Of a DNA stretch of 64,000 bases, positions 1,919 through 54,340 are shown one piece after another. The notes beneath the pieces were generated by a model. The model saw nothing but the letters and a program-made list of their open reading frames with translations, had not been told where the DNA came from and made no database searches. The position numbers and the translations under genes are program-made. Every line of letters begins with the position of its first letter. Position 1 is the first letter of the stretch. The stretch covers positions 32,001-96,000 of IMG/VR virus record IMGVR_UViG_3300012344_000001; one strand, written 5' to 3'. The DNA comes from a virus. Lineage: Duplodnaviria > Caudoviricetes.

Positions 1919-4201
1919 TTAGTCAACAACGGTCGCGACAACCGTGTCGATGAACTGGTAGCCGAACATACCGCCCATGCGGAAATGCTTCTGCGCCAGC
2001 ATCATAAGAGCAGACTTGGTGGTAGCAGTACGGGTCGCAGCAACCTTACCGGTATAAGCGCCGTCAACGGGCTCAATGTAGCTACCAGCAGCGAAAGCGC
2101 CGTCAATAACGTCAGTAGACAGTTCGAAATCAAGACCAGGAACCAGCATGATAGCAGTCACGACCTCGCCAGCCTGATAAACATACTGGGTGTAGTCGGG
2201 CCGACCCTCGGGACGACGACCGTCGGGAAGAGTCTCAAAACCGTCATTGATGATGATAGCCGCACGCAGACCAAGGTCGGCGGTAGCAGGCTGGGAACCA
2301 GTGTAGACCTGATAGTTGTCGGCGATGCTGGAATCAAGCGCCTTCAGCATGACGATATCGCCAGCGTGCAGGGTCTTGCCAGTGGGGACAGAAACCTTCT
2401 TGACAAGGTAATCAGGAACGCGAGGATTAGTCGCGCGGCAAAGATAATTCCGTTGTGTTAGTCAAACTAACTTACTGCTTCATCGAGCTCTTTTTCGCAA
2501 AAGCTACTAAAGTCTTACAGCCCTTCACAGCATAGAGGTGCAACGACACCTTTAGACTGCAATCTTTTAACTTAGATTGCATATCTACTCAGGTTGATAG
2601 CAGCATTGTAATCACGGTCGATTGTAAAGCCACACACTTCACATTCGTACACGCGGTCGCCAAGTTTCAAGCTTTGCTTTATGTTTCCACAGCAAGAACA
2701 AGTCTTACTGCTTGGATAGAAACGGTCAGCTTGAACAAATTCAATCCCGCGCCATTCGCATTTATATCGCATCTGTCTGACAAATTCATGAAAACACTGT
2801 TCCTTAATTGCCACACCCAAATGCTTATTTTTCATCATGTCGACAACATCTAAGTCTTCCATTACCACCCTTGCCGGTAGTTTAGTAACCAAAAAATGCG
2901 TCGCTTGGTGAATATAATTCATGCGAATATTTGAAACGCGTGCATACAACTTACGAAGTTTTGCTTCTTCTTTCATAATATTATTCGTCTTTACAAACTT
3001 GTTCCCAACTCTGTTCTGTTCATATTTGCGCGAAATTGAACGCTGTATACGAACTATTTCCTTCTTCAACTTGCGTATCCGACAAGATTTGTTAATATTA
3101 TGAAATACGATTTGGTCTTCGTTAAATTCTGCCACCGCTAAATCTTTCAATCCAAGGTCTATGCCCATGCTTACATCCGTTAATTTAAGTGCTTGATTTT
3201 CGCACATCATGCCAAAGGACAGCATCCACTTACCATTCTTATTTGATATTCGTGGGTTTGTGAACTTGTGTCCTTTCCCCAAAGGCAATTCAAAGTCTGT
3301 TTTATAACGAACCTTACCAATTTTTTCTATTGAAACTTTCATATCTGAAAACCAGATATTTTCACGAATTGGAAATCTTAGCCCGTTCGACTTTCGACTT
3401 TTGAACTTTGGGTAACCGGATTTTTTATTAAAGAAATTTTGGTATGCTTTATCAAGGTCAAGACATATATAGCTAAGGCTTTTATTAGAAACGTCATATA
3501 ACCAATCGTGCAGACCATCGTTCTTTAATGGTTTAAGTAAGCTTATCATTGAAAATCCAGACAGATATTTCCCGCCATTTTTATACAGTTCTTGCTGGTA
3601 TGCCAACATATAGTTCCAGACGAACCTACAAGCACCCGCATGGCTTAACATCTTCTGTTCTTGTTCTTTTGTTGGGTATAACCTTATCTTATAAGATTTA
3701 ATATACATCGTTATCACCTCCTCTTATTAGTTATAAGAGGAGACGGTGGGAACATACCCCACCATGCTTCTTCTCCTTTATCGGGTCGCTACCCCGTGAC
3801 ACTCCGTTTCGGAGTCTTTGCCTTTCGGCAAAGCGCAGACTATATCTTCATCCTTTCGGATGCCCACCACAGTCTTCGCCAATCGCTTGCGAAGCACTTA
3901 GTCGTTGAACCTTCTGCATTTTGCATTATAGCATATTTTACAACGCTTGTCAATACTTTAGTTGTAAATATTTTATGAACAAAATACAGCTTGGCTGCTG
4001 ATTGCCCATTACGGGAAGCGTTTAGGGTTTAACCTTGCGCCATCCGGTATATTTTTTCTACTTTCGTCGCCATCACGCTTAGGATTTAACCTTACGTTGT
4101 GGCTATACCGGCTTTAGGGGTTTCCAGCAATTCAATGGGTATTTTTATCGAACACATTTCTGTGAACGTGACCTATCGAACACGATGGTTCATTAAGCCA
4201 T
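1919..4201 (-). CDS. capsid-associated (decoration/stabilising-like) protein, spliced: exon1 4201-4196 (ATG GCT), exon2 2449-1919
   Basis: GAAAGGA SD before ATG GCT followed by in-frame TAA; removing 4195-2450 gives in-frame MA|NYLCRATNPRVPDYLVKK... continuous with ORF 1919..2350. Confidence 0.8.
2450..2571 (-). ncRNA. putative TnpB omegaRNA scaffold (3' part), coincident with intron 3' end
   Basis: Non-coding segment after tnpB stop ending ...GATGAAGCAGTAAG...ACAACGG; inferred from known tnpB locus architecture. Confidence 0.55.
2572..3708 (-). CDS. tnpB: RNA-guided endonuclease TnpB (intron-encoded)
   Basis: KSYKIRLYPT N-terminus, RuvC GIDLG / VMEDL / DRDYNAAIN, CSCCG..CEVCG Zn ribbon; all catalytic residues present. 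Confidence 0.95.
   Translation of the reverse strand: MYIKSYKIRLYPTKEQEQKMLSHAGACRFVWNYMLAYQQELYKNGGKYLSGFSMISLLKPLKNDGLHDWLYDVSNKSLSYICLDLDKAYQNFFNKKSGYPKFKSRKSNGLRFPIRENIWFSDMKVSIEKIGKVRYKTDFELPLGKGHKFTNPRISNKNGKWMLSFGMMCENQALKLTDVSMGIDLGLKDLAVAEFNEDQIVFHNINKSCRIRKLKKEIVRIQRSISRKYEQNRVGNKFVKTNNIMKEEAKLRKLYARVSNIRMNYIHQATHFLVTKLPARVVMEDLDVVDMMKNKHLGVAIKEQCFHEFVRQMRYKCEWRGIEFVQADRFYPSSKTCSCCGNIKQSLKLGDRVYECEVCGFTIDRDYNAAINLSRYAI
3925..3953 (-). promoter_or_regulatory. sigmaA consensus promoter inside the intron, upstream of tnpB
   Basis: TTGACA-17 nt-TATAAT with extended TG. Confidence 0.8.
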
Positions 4202-4225
4202 AATAATTCAACATCCTTTCTTTAA

Positions 4226-44263: not shown

Positions 44264-44336
44264 TCGCCCATATCGTAGTCGAAACGATGTCTCCAGATTG
44301 AAGGTCTGGCGGCTTAGACCGCTTGCCTAATGGGCG
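44264..44336 (-). tRNA. tRNA-Glu (TTC)-like, atypical (C33, T-A closing T-stem, no CCA)
   Basis: CGCCCAT/ATGGGCG acceptor, GGC/GCC D-stem, CCAGA-CCTTCAA-TCTGG, ATCGT-TTCGACT-ACGAT; own promoter 44355-44383 and hairpin 44226-44253. Confidence 0.7.
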
Positions 44337-44389
44337 ATTTCCAACTGTGCTATTATAATAACACACGCTTTAGATTTTGTCAAGTGCTT

Positions 44390-45822: not shown

Positions 45823-46001
45823 TTAATGCACCCCTTCTTGTAGCCGCCAATAATGCCTTCGATTGACGACGCTTCAAAAATGTAGATTTTCCTTGTGATA
45901 TCTTTCAGGTCGCGCTTGGTTTTCAGCAGTTTGCCGCCGTTCGCCAGCAGGTATTCACACATTCGCGGACTGTGGACAATTTTTTCATTCTTAAAAGCCA
46001 A
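45819..46001 (-). CDS. small DUF5659-like protein
   Basis: IVHSPRMCEYLL...KIYIF. Confidence 0.5.
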   Translation of the reverse strand: MAFKNEKIVHSPRMCEYLLANGGKLLKTKRDLKDITRKIYIFEASSIEGIIGGYKKGCIK

Positions 46002-46017
46002 TACACGTCACAACCCT

Positions 46018-46593
46018 TCACACAACGTCGCGCCAGCCAATACGGTCGGTCAACAGCGGCGTCATCACATAGCTTCCACGTTCGCGGGCGTTGTAGCCGT
46101 CCTTGTAAGACCAATCCTTGATGCGTTCGTCGATATAGTCCTTTGCCGCGTCCAGTTCTTCCTTCTTGAACTCCGGCATCACCATGATGCGAACATCTTC
46201 AAAGGTCAGGTCGCCAACAACAATGTCTGCCGACATATTGCCGCCCAGCGTGAAATTCATACAAACGTAATCTTCCACGCCAAGGAAGGACTTGTCGAAC
46301 AGTTCGATGTCATCCTTGGAAAAATCAAGCTTCGTGCCATAACCCGTGCGACAAAGACCGCCGTATTCCGCGCCCAGCTTGCGAAGTTCTGCGTCCGCAA
46401 TAATACAGTGCATTGTGTTGCAGTTCTGTTCGGGAATATAGATTTCCTTTACGCGATATGTGCTACCGTCCTTGTTGGTTTTAAGGAAAATAGCCGCCAT
46501 TCGCGCCGAACTGGCAACCGCATACTTACGCAGTTCGTTATATACCGCCTGTGACATCTTAATGTCGGGTTCTGTTCCGCGATAACTAATCAT
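46018..46593 (-). CDS. JAB/MPN-like protein, apparently catalytically degenerate
   Basis: YRVKEIYIPEQ...FSKDD pattern but no HxH. Confidence 0.4.
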   Translation of the reverse strand: MISYRGTEPDIKMSQAVYNELRKYAVASSARMAAIFLKTNKDGSTYRVKEIYIPEQNCNTMHCIIADAELRKLGAEYGGLCRTGYGTKLDFSKDDIELFDKSFLGVEDYVCMNFTLGGNMSADIVVGDLTFEDVRIMVMPEFKKEELDAAKDYIDERIKDWSYKDGYNARERGSYVMTPLLTDRIGWRDVV

Positions 46594-46817
46594 GCCAGCA
46601 CCTCCCTGTTAATCGGAACAACGGTCATGATTTGCACGTCGTCGCGCACCACAATCGTTCTTCGCAAGCCCTTGGCTTCAAGCCTTGCGTCTGCATCCGC
46701 CCTTGCCGCATCAACCTGTTCGCGGGTAGCGTAAAAGCTACAAGTGTCACAGTTGATGTCGCCAGAAAGAACGGAACATCCGCCCATGCCGTTGCAACCA
46801 AAGCAATCACGTTTCAT
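46590..46817 (-). CDS. small Cys-rich hypothetical protein
   Basis: DCFG...CSVL...CDTCSFYAT; GGAGGA SD; promoter 46859-46887. Confidence 0.6.
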   Translation of the reverse strand: MKRDCFGCNGMGGCSVLSGDINCDTCSFYATREQVDAARADADARLEAKGLRRTIVVRDDVQIMTVVPINREVLA

Positions 46818-46931
46818 TTTTCGTCCTCCTATTCATGCGGTTTAACCGCTATGATACTATAATAGCACACCGTTTAGATTTTGTCAAGCGTTTTTGTATC
46901 CGCCAAAGAATGTCTTTAACTAAAATGGTAA

Positions 46932-48171
46932 TGACATAATCCACCGCCTCTTGGTGTTTGTATTTCTACAATTTCCACATCATTGATTTTGCTTGCACTT
47001 GCGAAGTCTTACAAATCTCCGTGGACATTCAGGACGTACCCCGCCCCAAGATATTGCTTTACGCTAACATCTGTAATCCTTCTTGCAGGATGTTTAACGC
47101 GGCATTTAAGTCGCGCACATGATGCACGCCGCAACAAGGACAATCCCATTCGCGAACAGACAAATCCTTTGTTTTCGGATTCTTCCAACCGCAGAAAGAA
47201 CACAACTGACTTGATGGGAAATATCTATCAACAATATGAAGATTCTTTCCATACCACGCACACTTATATTCTAATTGCCTGCGGATTTCATAGAATGAAA
47301 CTTCCTGTGCCGCCTTTGCGCCAAAATGATTCTTTTTCATTTCAGATACCTTCAAATCTTCTATGCAGATGTCATCATATTTGCGCACAATGTCCGTCGT
47401 CAGCTTGTTGATGTAGTCTTTTCGCTGGTTGGCGACGTGTTCCATAGCCCTTGCAAGTTTAATTCGCGCCTTTTTCCAGTTTTCGCTACCGTTTGTTTTT
47501 CGCGATAGTTCTTTCTGTAGACGTGTAATCTTCTTTTGTGATTGCTTTAGGAACTTAGGATTAGGAACAACTGTTCCATCTGAAAACGTCATTAGATTAT
47601 CTGCTGAATTTAAGTCGATACCGATAGATTTTCCGGTTTTAGGTAGATGTTTTTCGGGGACATCAGTACAACAAACAGATATATAATATTTGTCTGCTGG
47701 TGTTTTAATGACCGTGACAGACAGGATTCTGCCTTCTACTTTTTTGCTGACGCAACATTTCACCATACCTATTTTAAGCAGCTGAACACAGTCATCAAAC
47801 AGGTGAACGCCAGTTCCAAGGACTCGATACGACTGCATTGTCTTTTTTGATTTGAAACGCGGATAGCCAACGCTTTGACCTTTTTTGATTCCACGAAAGA
47901 AATTAGAATAAGCACAATCTAAATCGCGCAATGATTGTTGCAAACCGACGGCGCTAACTTCGCGCAAATATGCAAATTCTTCCGTCTTTTTAAGACTTGT
48001 CAAATCTTTCATGCAGTCAAATCCGCCTATTCGTTTCTTTTCGGTTTCCCATGCAGTTTTGCGCATTTCAAGATAATGGTTATAAACTTTACGACAACAG
48101 CCGAAAGTTCTTTTCATGTGTTCTTTTTGTGCATCATTCGGATAAATGCGGAACTTATATGATTTTTCCGT
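46932..48171 (-). mobile_element. IS200/IS605-type tnpB + omegaRNA, no tnpA and no evident left end
   Basis: tnpB begins 6 nt after the hydrolase stop; non-coding tail ends GGTGGATTATGTCA (IS605-like right end). Confidence 0.7.
47059..48171 (-). CDS. tnpB: TnpB; conserved N-terminus begins at an ACG codon
   Basis: ACG GAA AAA TCA TAT AAG TTC CGC ATT TAT CCG (xEKSYKFRIYP); GIDL, IEDL, RDLNAALNI all intact. Confidence 0.9.
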   Translation of the reverse strand, partial: TEKSYKFRIYPNDAQKEHMKRTFGCCRKVYNHYLEMRKTAWETEKKRIGGFDCMKDLTSLKKTEEFAYLREVSAVGLQQSLRDLDCAYSNFFRGIKKGQSVGYPRFKSKKTMQSYRVLGTGVHLFDDCVQLLKIGMVKCCVSKKVEGRILSVTVIKTPADKYYISVCCTDVPEKHLPKTGKSIGIDLNSADNLMTFSDGTVVPNPKFLKQSQKKITRLQKELSRKTNGSENWKKARIKLARAMEHVANQRKDYINKLTTDIVRKYDDICIEDLKVSEMKKNHFGAKAAQEVSFYEIRRQLEYKCAWYGKNLHIVDRYFPSSQLCSFCGWKNPKTKDLSVREWDCPCCGVHHVRDLNAALNILQEGLQMLA

Positions 48172-48177
48172 TATCTA

Positions 48178-48726
48178 TCATCCCTTCATAATTCCACCGA
48201 AAAATGTATTATCTATTATGGCATACTGGGTATAATTATAAAAATTATGATGCCTTTGAGAACGAAAATAACAAACCCAGTCTGGAATTGTGCATCCATT
48301 GTAAATAATATAGTCCACGGCCTCATATTGCATTTCATTGGGGGTCACGTTCCCCAGCTTATTGCCCAAATCAAACTGCGGGACACCGCCGCTATTCTGT
48401 TTAATTACTTCTTCAATGCTGTTAGGAAATTCGTCAGACTTCACGCGATTCATCACAACGCTTACGACAGCGCGCTGACATTCCATAGATTCGCCACGCG
48501 CTTCCGTCCATAATAGACGCGCCAGCATTTCACGTTCGGTTGACGTTACGAAGAAATATGGCGTCGGTTCCACATAGACTTCCACATAGTCGGTGTGGTG
48601 AAACAGTTCTGTCCGCACGATAATTTCGACTGGAACTTCTTCTTCTGGTGCCAAAAGCGGCATAATTGTAGAAATAAACGTCCAGCAAACACAAATCCAA
48701 AGGAACAGCTTTTTGATGTCTTTCAT
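48178..48726 (-). CDS. cell wall hydrolase (SleB/Hydrolase_2 family)
   Basis: LARLLWTEARGE...VVMNRVKSDEFPNSIEEVI.Q...QF; N-terminal TM. Confidence 0.85.
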   Translation of the reverse strand: MKDIKKLFLWICVCWTFISTIMPLLAPEEEVPVEIIVRTELFHHTDYVEVYVEPTPYFFVTSTEREMLARLLWTEARGESMECQRAVVSVVMNRVKSDEFPNSIEEVIKQNSGGVPQFDLGNKLGNVTPNEMQYEAVDYIIYNGCTIPDWVCYFRSQRHHNFYNYTQYAIIDNTFFGGIMKG

Positions 48727-48742
48727 ATTGTACCCCTTTTGC

Positions 48743-48952
48743 TTAGATGATTTTTGCGCGGGTTTGCACCGGTTCAAAGAAGACGGTTTCAACGTCCCAT
48801 TCGTTCCCAGCATATCGCCCTTCGATGATGCGCACTTCAATATAGCCCTGTTTTAGTCTTGAAGTGCTTGTCACCATGCACTTCACATGATAATCTGTTT
48901 GGGTATACTGTTCGCTCGTATTACACCAAACAATTTGACCGACTTTGAACAC
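48743..48952 (-). CDS. small SH3-like protein (MFKVGQIVW family), tag AKII
   Basis: paralog of 51219 and 62394; ends RAKII. Confidence 0.65.
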   Translation of the reverse strand: MFKVGQIVWCNTSEQYTQTDYHVKCMVTSTSRLKQGYIEVRIIEGRYAGNEWDVETVFFEPVQTRAKII

Positions 48953-48955
48953 CGA

Positions 48956-49173
48956 CTACACCACCTTTGCCTTTAGATAAATCTGCCTTTCAAAACACGA
49001 CACGCGAATATCGGTCAGAACATCGCTGCCGCTTTTTGCGACAAGCTTTTTGTCGACAATCGCATAGTCGCGACGGACGTCGGCATATTTTTCGTCTTTA
49101 CAGCAACGACGCGATAAACGTTCGTGTCGTATACCAGCAAATCACCAATGCGCGGCTTATATCCGTTAGTCAT
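48956..49173 (-). pseudogene. frameshifted small SH3-like tagged gene (or sequencing error)
   Basis: MTNGYKPRIGDLLVYD... shifts frame near 49098 to ...QIYLKAKVV*; span is 218 nt. Confidence 0.6.
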
Positions 49174-49460
49174 GCGACCACCCTTCCCAAAATTTGGTCG
49201 TGGACAATGCGACCCTTCTTTTCGCCATTCTTGCCGATGGAATACCAGCGTCCATCAATCGCCAGAATGTCATAGATTCCCCACGCGCCAGTCTTCGTGA
49301 ACACCTTGTCGCCAACATGGAACTGCGTGGTGTTCTTGACGGGTGCGACGTTGTATCGCTGACCACCGACCTTGATTACGCCATATTCGCCAAGACGTAA
49401 CTTGGCGGCGGCGAAATCGTTTGGAACAGATTCAAAAGATGCAAAAAATTTTTTACCCAT
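49170..49460 (-). CDS. small hypothetical protein (FHVGDKV), ends GRVVA
   Basis: 96 aa. Confidence 0.55.
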   Translation of the reverse strand: MGKKFFASFESVPNDFAAAKLRLGEYGVIKVGGQRYNVAPVKNTTQFHVGDKVFTKTGAWGIYDILAIDGRWYSIGKNGEKKGRIVHDQILGRVVA

Positions 49461-49462
49461 AT

Positions 49463-49672
49463 TTATTCTCCATCATATTCAAAGAAAAAGACTGGTTCGC
49501 CACCCATTGACACAACCCAATCAGGGTTTTCGTTCTGTATTCTGTGGCAGAATTTTTCCGCCTGCTTGCGAAACAAAAAATAGACGTGTGAAAATGTGCC
49601 ATTTTCTGCCGACAATTCGATGTCCCATATTAGAATGTGTAAATCTGCAATAAACGCTTTGATTCTTTTCAT
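49463..49672 (-). CDS. hypothetical protein
   Basis: MKRIKAF ORF with GGTGGT SD. Confidence 0.5.
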   Translation of the reverse strand: MKRIKAFIADLHILIWDIELSAENGTFSHVYFLFRKQAEKFCHRIQNENPDWVVSMGGEPVFFFEYDGE

Positions 49673-49689
49673 ACCGACCACCACAAAAA

Positions 49690-51715: not shown

Positions 51716-51766
51716 TTTTTGTTCACCGTCCTTATGGTATTATATTACCACAAAATAAAGTTGTTG

Positions 51767-53090: not shown

Positions 53091-54340
53091 GTGAACTACA
53101 CACGATGATAAAGCACCGGTGCTTCCTAATCAATATCTCTAACGAGACAAGTTTACTTAGGCTATCCCCGTAGTTCCTACGGTTCTTATTCTCAATCCTT
53201 CATTAAGAATATTTATTGCAGCGTTAATGCCTCTATCGTGAACAGTTCCACATTGCGGACACACCCATTCTCTAACAGACAAATCCTTTATTTCTGTATT
53301 TTTGTATCCGCATTTACTACACAACTGCGAACTTGGATACCACGAATCAATTTTCACAATTTCTCTTCCGTACCAGTTTGCTTTGTATTCCAGTTGTCGT
53401 ACAAATTCTGACCATGATACATCAGCAATAGACTTAGCGAGTTTATGATTTTTCATCATATTCTTAACTTTCAATGTTTCCAGACATATGACTTGGTTTT
53501 CATCAATCAGTCTTTTTGAAAGTTTGTTTAGAAAGTCCTTGCGTTGATTCGTTATTTTCTCGTGACAACGTGCAACTTTAATTCTACATTTCTCTCGATT
53601 TTTACTTCCTTTTTTACAACGAGACAAGTCTTTCTGCAACTTCCGCAGTTTCTTTTCTGATTTTTTCAAGTATTTCGGATTTTCAATCACTTTGCCATCA
53701 GAAGTGGTTGCGAACCCCTTGATTCCCAAATCTATTCCAAGTTCAGAATCACATGGAATTTTCTTTGGAATATCTTCTTGTTCAACAAGAACCGAAACAT
53801 AATATTTTCCCGATGGCGTTCTTGTAATGGTAGCGTGTTTGATTGTTCCAAAAAAATTCCTGTGTTTCTTAATCCTGACAAGTCCAATTTTCGGAAGGTT
53901 AATGTGTCGTTCTGTCACGCGGATATTGGCTTGATTTGTAGTATAAGAATCATATCGCGTTTTCTTACTTTTGAATTTTGGGAACCCAACTTCTGGTCGC
54001 TTGAAGAAGTTGTTGTACGCTGTCCGTAAATTCATCTGAGCATTTGACAACGCTTGCGCATCGACTTCTCGAAGCCATGGAAATTCGTCTTTATATTGGG
54101 CTGGCGTATTTTTCAGGTTTTGTTTTGTCTTATTGTAAAACTCGATTTTATCAGCAAGCATACGATTGTAGATAAATCTGACGCAACCGAAGCATTTTGA
54201 AAAATAAGTTTTCTGTTCTTCATTTGGATACATTCTATATTTGTAGGCAATCAACATATCTACAATCACTTCCTTTCCGATATAGTTCTCTTTCTTTTGC
54301 CGACTATGCTAAAGCATAGCGGATATCTTTGATTTCATGT
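53091..54340 (-). mobile_element. IS200/IS605-type non-autonomous tnpB element
   Basis: right end ...GTGTAGTTCAC at 53091; left-end-like hairpin CTATGCT-TT-AGCATAG at about 54304-54319; left boundary approximate. Confidence 0.7.
53157..54257 (-). CDS. tnpB: TnpB with RuvC-III Asp-to-Gly substitution
   Basis: [18 protein letters not shown], but HDRGINAA instead of HDRDINAA. Confidence 0.9.

Follow-up and report, generated by a model that had tools for sequence, protein, structure and literature searches.

The DNA analysed here, called the window throughout, is a stretch of 64,000 nucleotides corresponding to bases 32001-96000 of a complete 107,954-bp (~108-kb) virus record with terminal repeats from a gut phage. 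The genes around the hydrolase and tnpB locus are carried on the minus strand, and the phage harbours two other tnpB genes besides the focal one. The features of the locus, followed by those of the other sites discussed below, are listed here by window position.

48178 to 48726, minus strand: complete Hydrolase_2 gene (SleB/CwlJ-like cell-wall hydrolase; PF07486, E=6e-14, profile matched to its end)
48300 to 48328, minus strand: resident copy of the putative target, consisting of the motif ATAT (48328-48325) and then 25 nt (48324-48300)
48178 to 48262, minus strand: cassette-borne hydrolase tail (last 22-28 codons plus stop), forming the left end of the mobile unit
48155 to 48181, minus strand: ATG (48181-48179) overlapping the hydrolase stop and opening an 8-codon frame to TAA; tnpB is read in the +1 frame with respect to it
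47059 to 48174, minus strand: tnpB open frame of 371 codons with HTH, RuvC and zinc finger (PF12323, PF01385 and PF07282, above cut-offs)
46951 to 47130, minus strand: putative omega-RNA scaffold overlapping the tnpB 3' end, with its non-coding part at 47058-46951
46926 to 46950, minus strand: putative guide template, 25 nt of native hydrolase allele directly past the right end
46884 to 46925, minus strand: decayed rest of the old hydrolase 3' end, comprising an 8-nt relic (46925-46918) and the last 11 codons plus stop (46917-46884)
46859 to 46887, minus strand: promoter-like site of the next gene, whose -35 contains the old stop, with a 17-nt spacer and the -10 at 46864-46859
46806 to 49680, no strand assigned: donor-type (co-converted) tract that surrounds the cassette, as seen against near-isogenic phages without tnpB
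44264 to 44336, minus strand: tRNA gene (Rfam, 57 bits); the cassette lies ~2.5 kb upstream of it
53187 to 54248, minus strand: second tnpB, 46% identical to the focal one, with a promoter-like site and an upstream leader of ~120 nt
3816 to 4205, minus strand: Rfam group I intron (85 bits), part of an IStron-like unit
2584 to 3699, minus strand: third tnpB, 34% identical to the focal one, in the same IStron-like unit
2472 to 2531, minus strand: RAGATH-18 match, directly after the third tnpB

The nearest solved structures to the focal TnpB were those of ISDra2 TnpB (E=9e-86). The three RuvC motifs align with them and the zinc finger is in place, and the Asp-Glu-Asp residues of the RuvC motifs were intact in the alignment with the top solved-structure match. 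The dN/dS values of tnpB were 0.066-0.083 in all three pairs formed by the window and the related copies L007 and L029. The frame opens at 48174, directly after TGA TAG and in the same frame as the hydrolase, and none of its first 19 codons is ATG, GTG or TTG. The preliminary description had tnpB starting 6 nt past the hydrolase; the frame does open there after TGA TAG, but a canonical in-frame start is missing at that position. The ATG that overlaps the hydrolase stop is out of frame, and a run of five A is found at 48167-48163 within this out-of-frame start region. All ten window-type assemblies share this arrangement, as does the L029 copy at 85% identity, so it is no assembly error. The N-terminal tnpB codons of the two copies with an out-of-frame start differed by 6 synonymous and 2 non-synonymous changes. 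As no in-frame canonical start is available, production of full-length TnpB requires a +1 shift or an unusual start, and we conjecture that slipping by +1 on the A run (48167-48163) would yield a normal TnpB N-terminus. The tnpB gene of L007 has an in-frame GTG start.

Four lineages of the TnpB clade (window 48155-48181, L029:1085-1112, L012 and L028) had their only canonical upstream start out of frame, and in three of the four an A-rich run was placed where a +1 shift restores the frame. Such out-of-frame tnpB starts may represent programmed low-level expression.

The hydrolase open frame (48726-48178) ends in IMKG and TGA right before tnpB, as it had been read earlier, and the remark that there is no space for an IS left end was borne out, since the gap between the two genes is too short for a separate non-coding left end. 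The exact window hydrolase protein was present on at least 23 contigs from several studies. The native layout was seen in the syntenic tnpB-less phage L006 (104.8 kb), where the hydrolase ends in FGGY plus three residues and its stop lies inside the same promoter. Comparison of the gene ends of relatives, which had been proposed as a check, gave a clear result among ~40 homologues: all tnpB-less relatives ended in FGGY plus 1-3 residues, and IMKG was confined to the two tnpB-linked alleles. The hydrolase tail departs from every native allele from ~48265. The L029 element, which lies at another locus, was homologous to window 48242-46951, including a frameshifted, decayed relic of the hydrolase tail. 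Since this homology spans the relic, the last 22-28 hydrolase codons of the window belong to the mobile unit, and the alignments indicate that the focal cassette supplies the last codons of the hydrolase gene that tnpB adjoins.

An identity breakpoint had been expected near 48330; strong divergence was instead found from ~48265, with a weaker diverged tract reaching to ~49680. The proposal that a recoded 3' end had replaced the original therefore holds for the replacement end itself, limited to the last 22-28 codons, and not for purpose-made recoding, because the mismatches of the resident target belong to a natural allele class that also occurs in tnpB-less phages, such as L037.

The 108-nt non-coding scaffold was 90-95% identical among three elements, compared with 67-69% at third codon positions, and its consensus fold contained 36 pairs, 9 of them with compensatory changes. 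These values indicate that the non-coding scaffold is under purifying selection. The conserved RNA region ended in the identical four bases, CCAA, in ten homologous elements (46954-46951 in the window). This common terminus sets the right end at 46951 and the guide template at 46950-46926. The right end had previously been placed at 46932 and the guide at 46931-46912; neither position survived the comparison, the template lying 19 nt upstream of the one proposed. The 20-mer at 46931-46912 was ruled out as a guide, as it spans two deletion junctions of the remnant.

The guide template matched hydrolase alleles at 25/25 positions in L009 and 21/21 in L006, both tnpB-less, and at 20/21 in the resident copy of L007. 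Each match was directly preceded by TAT or TAC, and the match falls within the invariant EAVDY codons of the hydrolase. The search that had been suggested, for a guide match inside tnpB-less hydrolases with a motif 5' of it, was thus positive for 46950-46926. The resident copy of the window keeps the 5' motif despite 4 mismatches to the guide in the first 20 positions (6, 12, 16 and 18), two of which are in the likely seed. The allele of L031, a co-occurring tnpB-less phage, was mismatched to the guide at positions 6 and 18. Among the six sites with an uninterrupted orthologue, T-A-Y stood immediately 5' of the target in five (hydrolase, phosphoesterase, L026, where it is just downstream of a promoter -10 box, L028 and L035) and TGT in the sixth, the motif having been derived post hoc. 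Across these sites the recurrence of T-A-Y appears far more regular than chance.

In the hydrolase-site cassette of L007 the remnant is missing its first 27 nt, and the new right-end flank is without T-A-Y in native alleles. The loss looks like a deletion, since direct near-repeats border the missing 27 nt, and the flank without T-A-Y implies that guides are not always maintained. The L007 right-end flank was considered as a second functional guide and rejected, its native context being without T-A-Y.

In the hydrolase cluster at 90% identity, the first 135 residues were nearly invariant, and the residues just past the target codons formed a mosaic of many variants. Either escape from cutting directed by the guide or simple recombination could account for this mosaic, which follows EAVDY at window 48309-48262 and in homologues.

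The remnant beyond the guide template is the native hydrolase end with two internal deletions between its pieces. The second, differently spelled hydrolase terminus noticed at first reading is real, being located at 46917-46884 and ending in a stop, and the attention drawn to a stretch reading HFS was justified, as it is a genuine relic of the native HHF(S)W codons. The idea that a fragment of the original gene was kept as guide stood in so far as a native fragment occupies the guide position, and fell in so far as this fragment was thought to derive from this phage's own gene. The remnant instead arrived as one block together with the cassette, from a donor that had diverged. The layout of the promoter with the hydrolase stop was alike in tnpB-less relatives, and the promoter is repeated at 44348-44384. 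For both the hydrolase gene, taken in its native form (46882-46887), and the metallophosphoesterase gene (51740-51760), the -35 hexamer of the following promoter encloses the stop codon.

A right-end variant of the omega-RNA was observed in L008:5190-5242, L009:3920-3963, L010, L011 and L012, in which a ribosome-binding site and an ATG precede the last bases. This variant gives a new start to a downstream phage gene whose own start has been displaced, a mirror-image counterpart to the spare gene tail.

Close TnpB relatives (82-88% identical) sit in related ~100-kb phages of pig and other gut metagenomes, and the TnpB clade occupies at least 12 different sites. A search for Y1 and serine transposases (PF01797, PF00239) gave no match across the complete 108-kb phage record, in agreement with the earlier suggestion of spread without transposase. 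A conserved left end was absent across sites; the stretch from the motif to tnpB was locus-specific and homologous to the local target. With neither transposase nor conserved left end, the focal element lacks the hallmarks of an IS mobilised by TnpA. Rfam gave no match to a group I intron or an omega-RNA family in 46000-49500, even at E up to 1, and an IStron was ruled out for the focal cassette because no group I ribozyme encloses tnpB in that interval. The search of the GenBank phage collection returned a sole match, 85 nt of an Aeromonas phage transposase gene, and IMG/VR scans with TnpB peptide patterns and with the hydrolase-tnpB junction recovered only the window's own record.

An IStron-like unit is found inside a structural gene at 2430-4205 on the minus strand. 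The second tnpB (53187-54248) is maybe nuclease-dead, as its third RuvC motif has Gly for the expected Asp. Decaying copies of the focal-type element were seen in two pairs of contigs, L024/L025 and L026/L027; one pair has a truncated tnpB fused to the end of a neighbouring gene, and in the other an in-frame TAG breaks tnpB and the scaffold is still intact.

In L029, no tnpB was found at the hydrolase, and the 85%-identical copy lies after the metallophosphoesterase gene; beyond 46806, on the downstream side, L029 and window DNA are ~100% identical. At the L029 site, a complete, diverged phosphoesterase end is located left of the cassette and the native end immediately past its right end. Naive genomes have T-A-T before this native end, from which the left copy differs at 6/21 positions. 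L026 has a shorter version of this layout of gene end, cassette and native end. In a local-alignment test for flank duplications, L029 was significant and the window borderline, while L026, L012, L028 and L035 were not significant when taken alone.

At the hydrolase site, the cassette was absent from L006, L029, L030, L031 and L037 and present in the window phage and L007, these genomes being otherwise syntenic. The window phage (cassette at the hydrolase), L029 (at the phosphoesterase) and L031 (at neither) form a near-isogenic trio, and L031 (tnpB-) and the L014 contig (tnpB+) came from the same sample at similar coverage. The window was ~100% identical to L031 and L029 outside ~49680-46806, 87-96% identical upstream of the cassette, and 79% identical to L031 in the 150 nt after the remnant. 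The L029 cassette is also within a locally diverged tract. In ten independent tnpB+ assemblies, the upstream end of the tract was at ~49000 (1), ~49110 (1), ~49560 (4) or beyond 49680 (4), and in the window itself the donor-type tract extends beyond 49680. The downstream end was at 46806 in all eight assemblies long enough to show it. Such tracts are the pattern left when homologous recombination brings in an insert from a diverged donor and co-converts its flanks to a varying extent. The variable donor tracts are compatible with homing but not exclusive to it, as break-independent recombination would leave similar traces.

Taken together, the stretch ~48262-46951 is probably a transposase-less TnpB/omega-RNA cassette that serves RNA-guided homing of the intronless type, or the cutting of rivals. 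The left end of the cassette would encode substitute last codons of the hydrolase, keeping the gene whole, and tnpB would be read from the same transcript as the hydrolase. The omega-RNA would continue past the right end into 20-25 nt of the native hydrolase allele, which would act as the guide. In cells infected by both kinds of phage, TnpB would cleave any hydrolase gene bearing the guide sequence beside T-A-Y, and the carrier would be spared by the seed mismatches of its own target copy. The break would be repaired from the tnpB+ genome and the cassette copied with variable lengths of flank; alternatively, the rival genome would simply be damaged. Within this homing scheme, we infer the expression of the system, cleavage and the driving of recombination by breaks. 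The preliminary description had already proposed an RNA-guided homing cassette with a gene end as guide; its anatomy and target match were upheld, and its guide position, tail extent and remnant origin were revised. As for the first joining of the right end to its target, microhomology between the right end and naive sites was sought and none was seen, which makes end-joining an unlikely origin of the right-end junctions; one-ended motif-specific joining, or capture of the 5' flank by a trans-acting TnpA, is possible.

A wider proposal is speculative and should be taken as doubtful. Under it, the TnpB lineage as a whole would be a transposase-free, RNA-guided phage gene drive, which keeps invaded genes working by means of spare parts (the tail at the left end, the ribosome-binding site and ATG at the right end), retargets by rejoining its right end beside T-A-Y, controls the dose of its nuclease by a +1 shift at a short run of A, and drives diversification of the targeted codons.

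The locus might also be an inert scar, in which the right end became attached to the hydrolase of another phage through one-ended transposition or through recombination of an unequal or illegitimate kind, with the gene end duplicated in the process, tnpB left as a decaying passenger and the guide match as a leftover of recency. The out-of-frame start codon of tnpB, the two deletions in the remnant, the loss of the guide-proximal 27 nt in L007, and the truncated or stop-broken copies in L024/25 and L026/27 fit such an origin, and the 25 nt are kept in one lineage only, a retention that is not statistically remarkable. However, tnpB is under strong purifying selection, including the N-terminal codons of the copies with an out-of-frame start, and so is the non-coding scaffold; the 5' motif recurs at independent sites, and equal architecture is found at other genes. 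We consider an inert scar unlikely. The element could otherwise be an ordinary non-autonomous member of IS200/IS605, moved by the TnpA of the host or of another element, with TnpB performing restorative homing after excision, the gene tail being a captured 5' flank, and transfer between phages occurring by ordinary recombination. Right-end junctions just 3' of T-A-Y in naive DNA are a signature of TnpA-type target choice, and both the spread of the clade over many sites and the closeness of ISDra2 TnpB among solved relatives agree with it. The left end, however, is not conserved across sites, with a locus-specific stretch between motif and tnpB that resembles the local target; the phage is without transposase; and nothing useful would be regained by excision, given the differences between the guide and the resident copy of the gene. 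An element of this ordinary type is judged improbable here.

Domestication of the protein as a guide-RNA-directed DNA binder, a TldR-like regulator acting on phage or host genes and not as a nuclease, was weighed as well. The Gly in place of the third RuvC Asp in the tnpB at 53187-54248 suggests that such exaptation may occur in this genome, but the focal TnpB retains all three RuvC motifs and the zinc finger, and its guide matches coding sequence of rival alleles and no promoter, so a regulator of this kind is very hard to credit at the focal locus.

The homing reading matters because TnpB is known for maintaining transposons by cutting the vacated site, and stand-alone homing or competition between viruses has so far been mostly theory. 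As a natural case open to experiment, the locus combines a defined guide and a candidate motif with alleles of both kinds, sensitive and resistant. Near-isogenic phages carry the cassette at one site, at another or at neither, and the population holds traces of co-conversion. It would also illustrate a route by which a nuclease element can enter coding sequence without an intron, by bringing a replacement gene end, and it has implications for the spread of RNA-guided nucleases before CRISPR arrays and for the logic by which 'cut and rescue' drives are designed. A literature search found no paper on intronless homing by a phage TnpB.

Compared with ISDra2 TnpB and its omega-RNA or reRNA (IS200/IS605; PDB 8EXA, 8BF8 and 8H1J), for which transposon 'restorative homing' has been described (bioRxiv 10.1101/2023.03.14.532601), the focal system shares the protein family, a scaffold over the tnpB 3' end, a guide in the right-end flank and a motif 5' of the target. 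It differs in being without TnpA and without a conserved left end, and in its inferred motif (T-A-Y, against TTGAT for ISDra2). Its target would be the homologous allele in other phages and not the excised donor joint, and it carries part of the host gene. [quoted passage not shown] Unlike that for the proposal, the evidence here was drawn from phages in a natural population, where substitutions, in addition to the missing insert, set the 'empty' allele apart. IStrons combine a group I intron with TnpB (PMC10690162), and like them the focal TnpB element avoids harm to the invaded gene, with the difference that the gene would be kept whole by a spare tail at the DNA level and with no splicing.

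In fungal mitochondria, mobile endonuclease ORFs bring a foreign gene 3' end and leave the native end behind, as in Allomyces atp6. The enzymes in those cases are protein-guided GIY-YIG or LAGLIDADG endonucleases of organelle genomes. The focal locus has the same order of parts, with the endonuclease gene after a substituted gene end and the displaced native end downstream.

The free-standing homing endonuclease genes SegF, SegG and SegB of T4-like phages cause intronless homing and localized marker exclusion, and intronless homing in T-even phages gives variable co-conversion around the insert (PMC13565253). As with these genes, the focal nuclease gene lies between conserved phage genes, its target would be in a nearby conserved gene of a nuclease-less phage, self would be spared by substitutions, and flanks would be co-converted over variable lengths. 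Unlike in SegF, SegG and SegB, recognition would be by a guide RNA and not by protein; a specificity written in adjacent DNA can change by deletion or rejoining. On balance, the comparison of sequence and layout favours a cassette that works most like a free-standing phage homing endonuclease, with its specificity held in RNA and a spare gene tail in the place of an intron.
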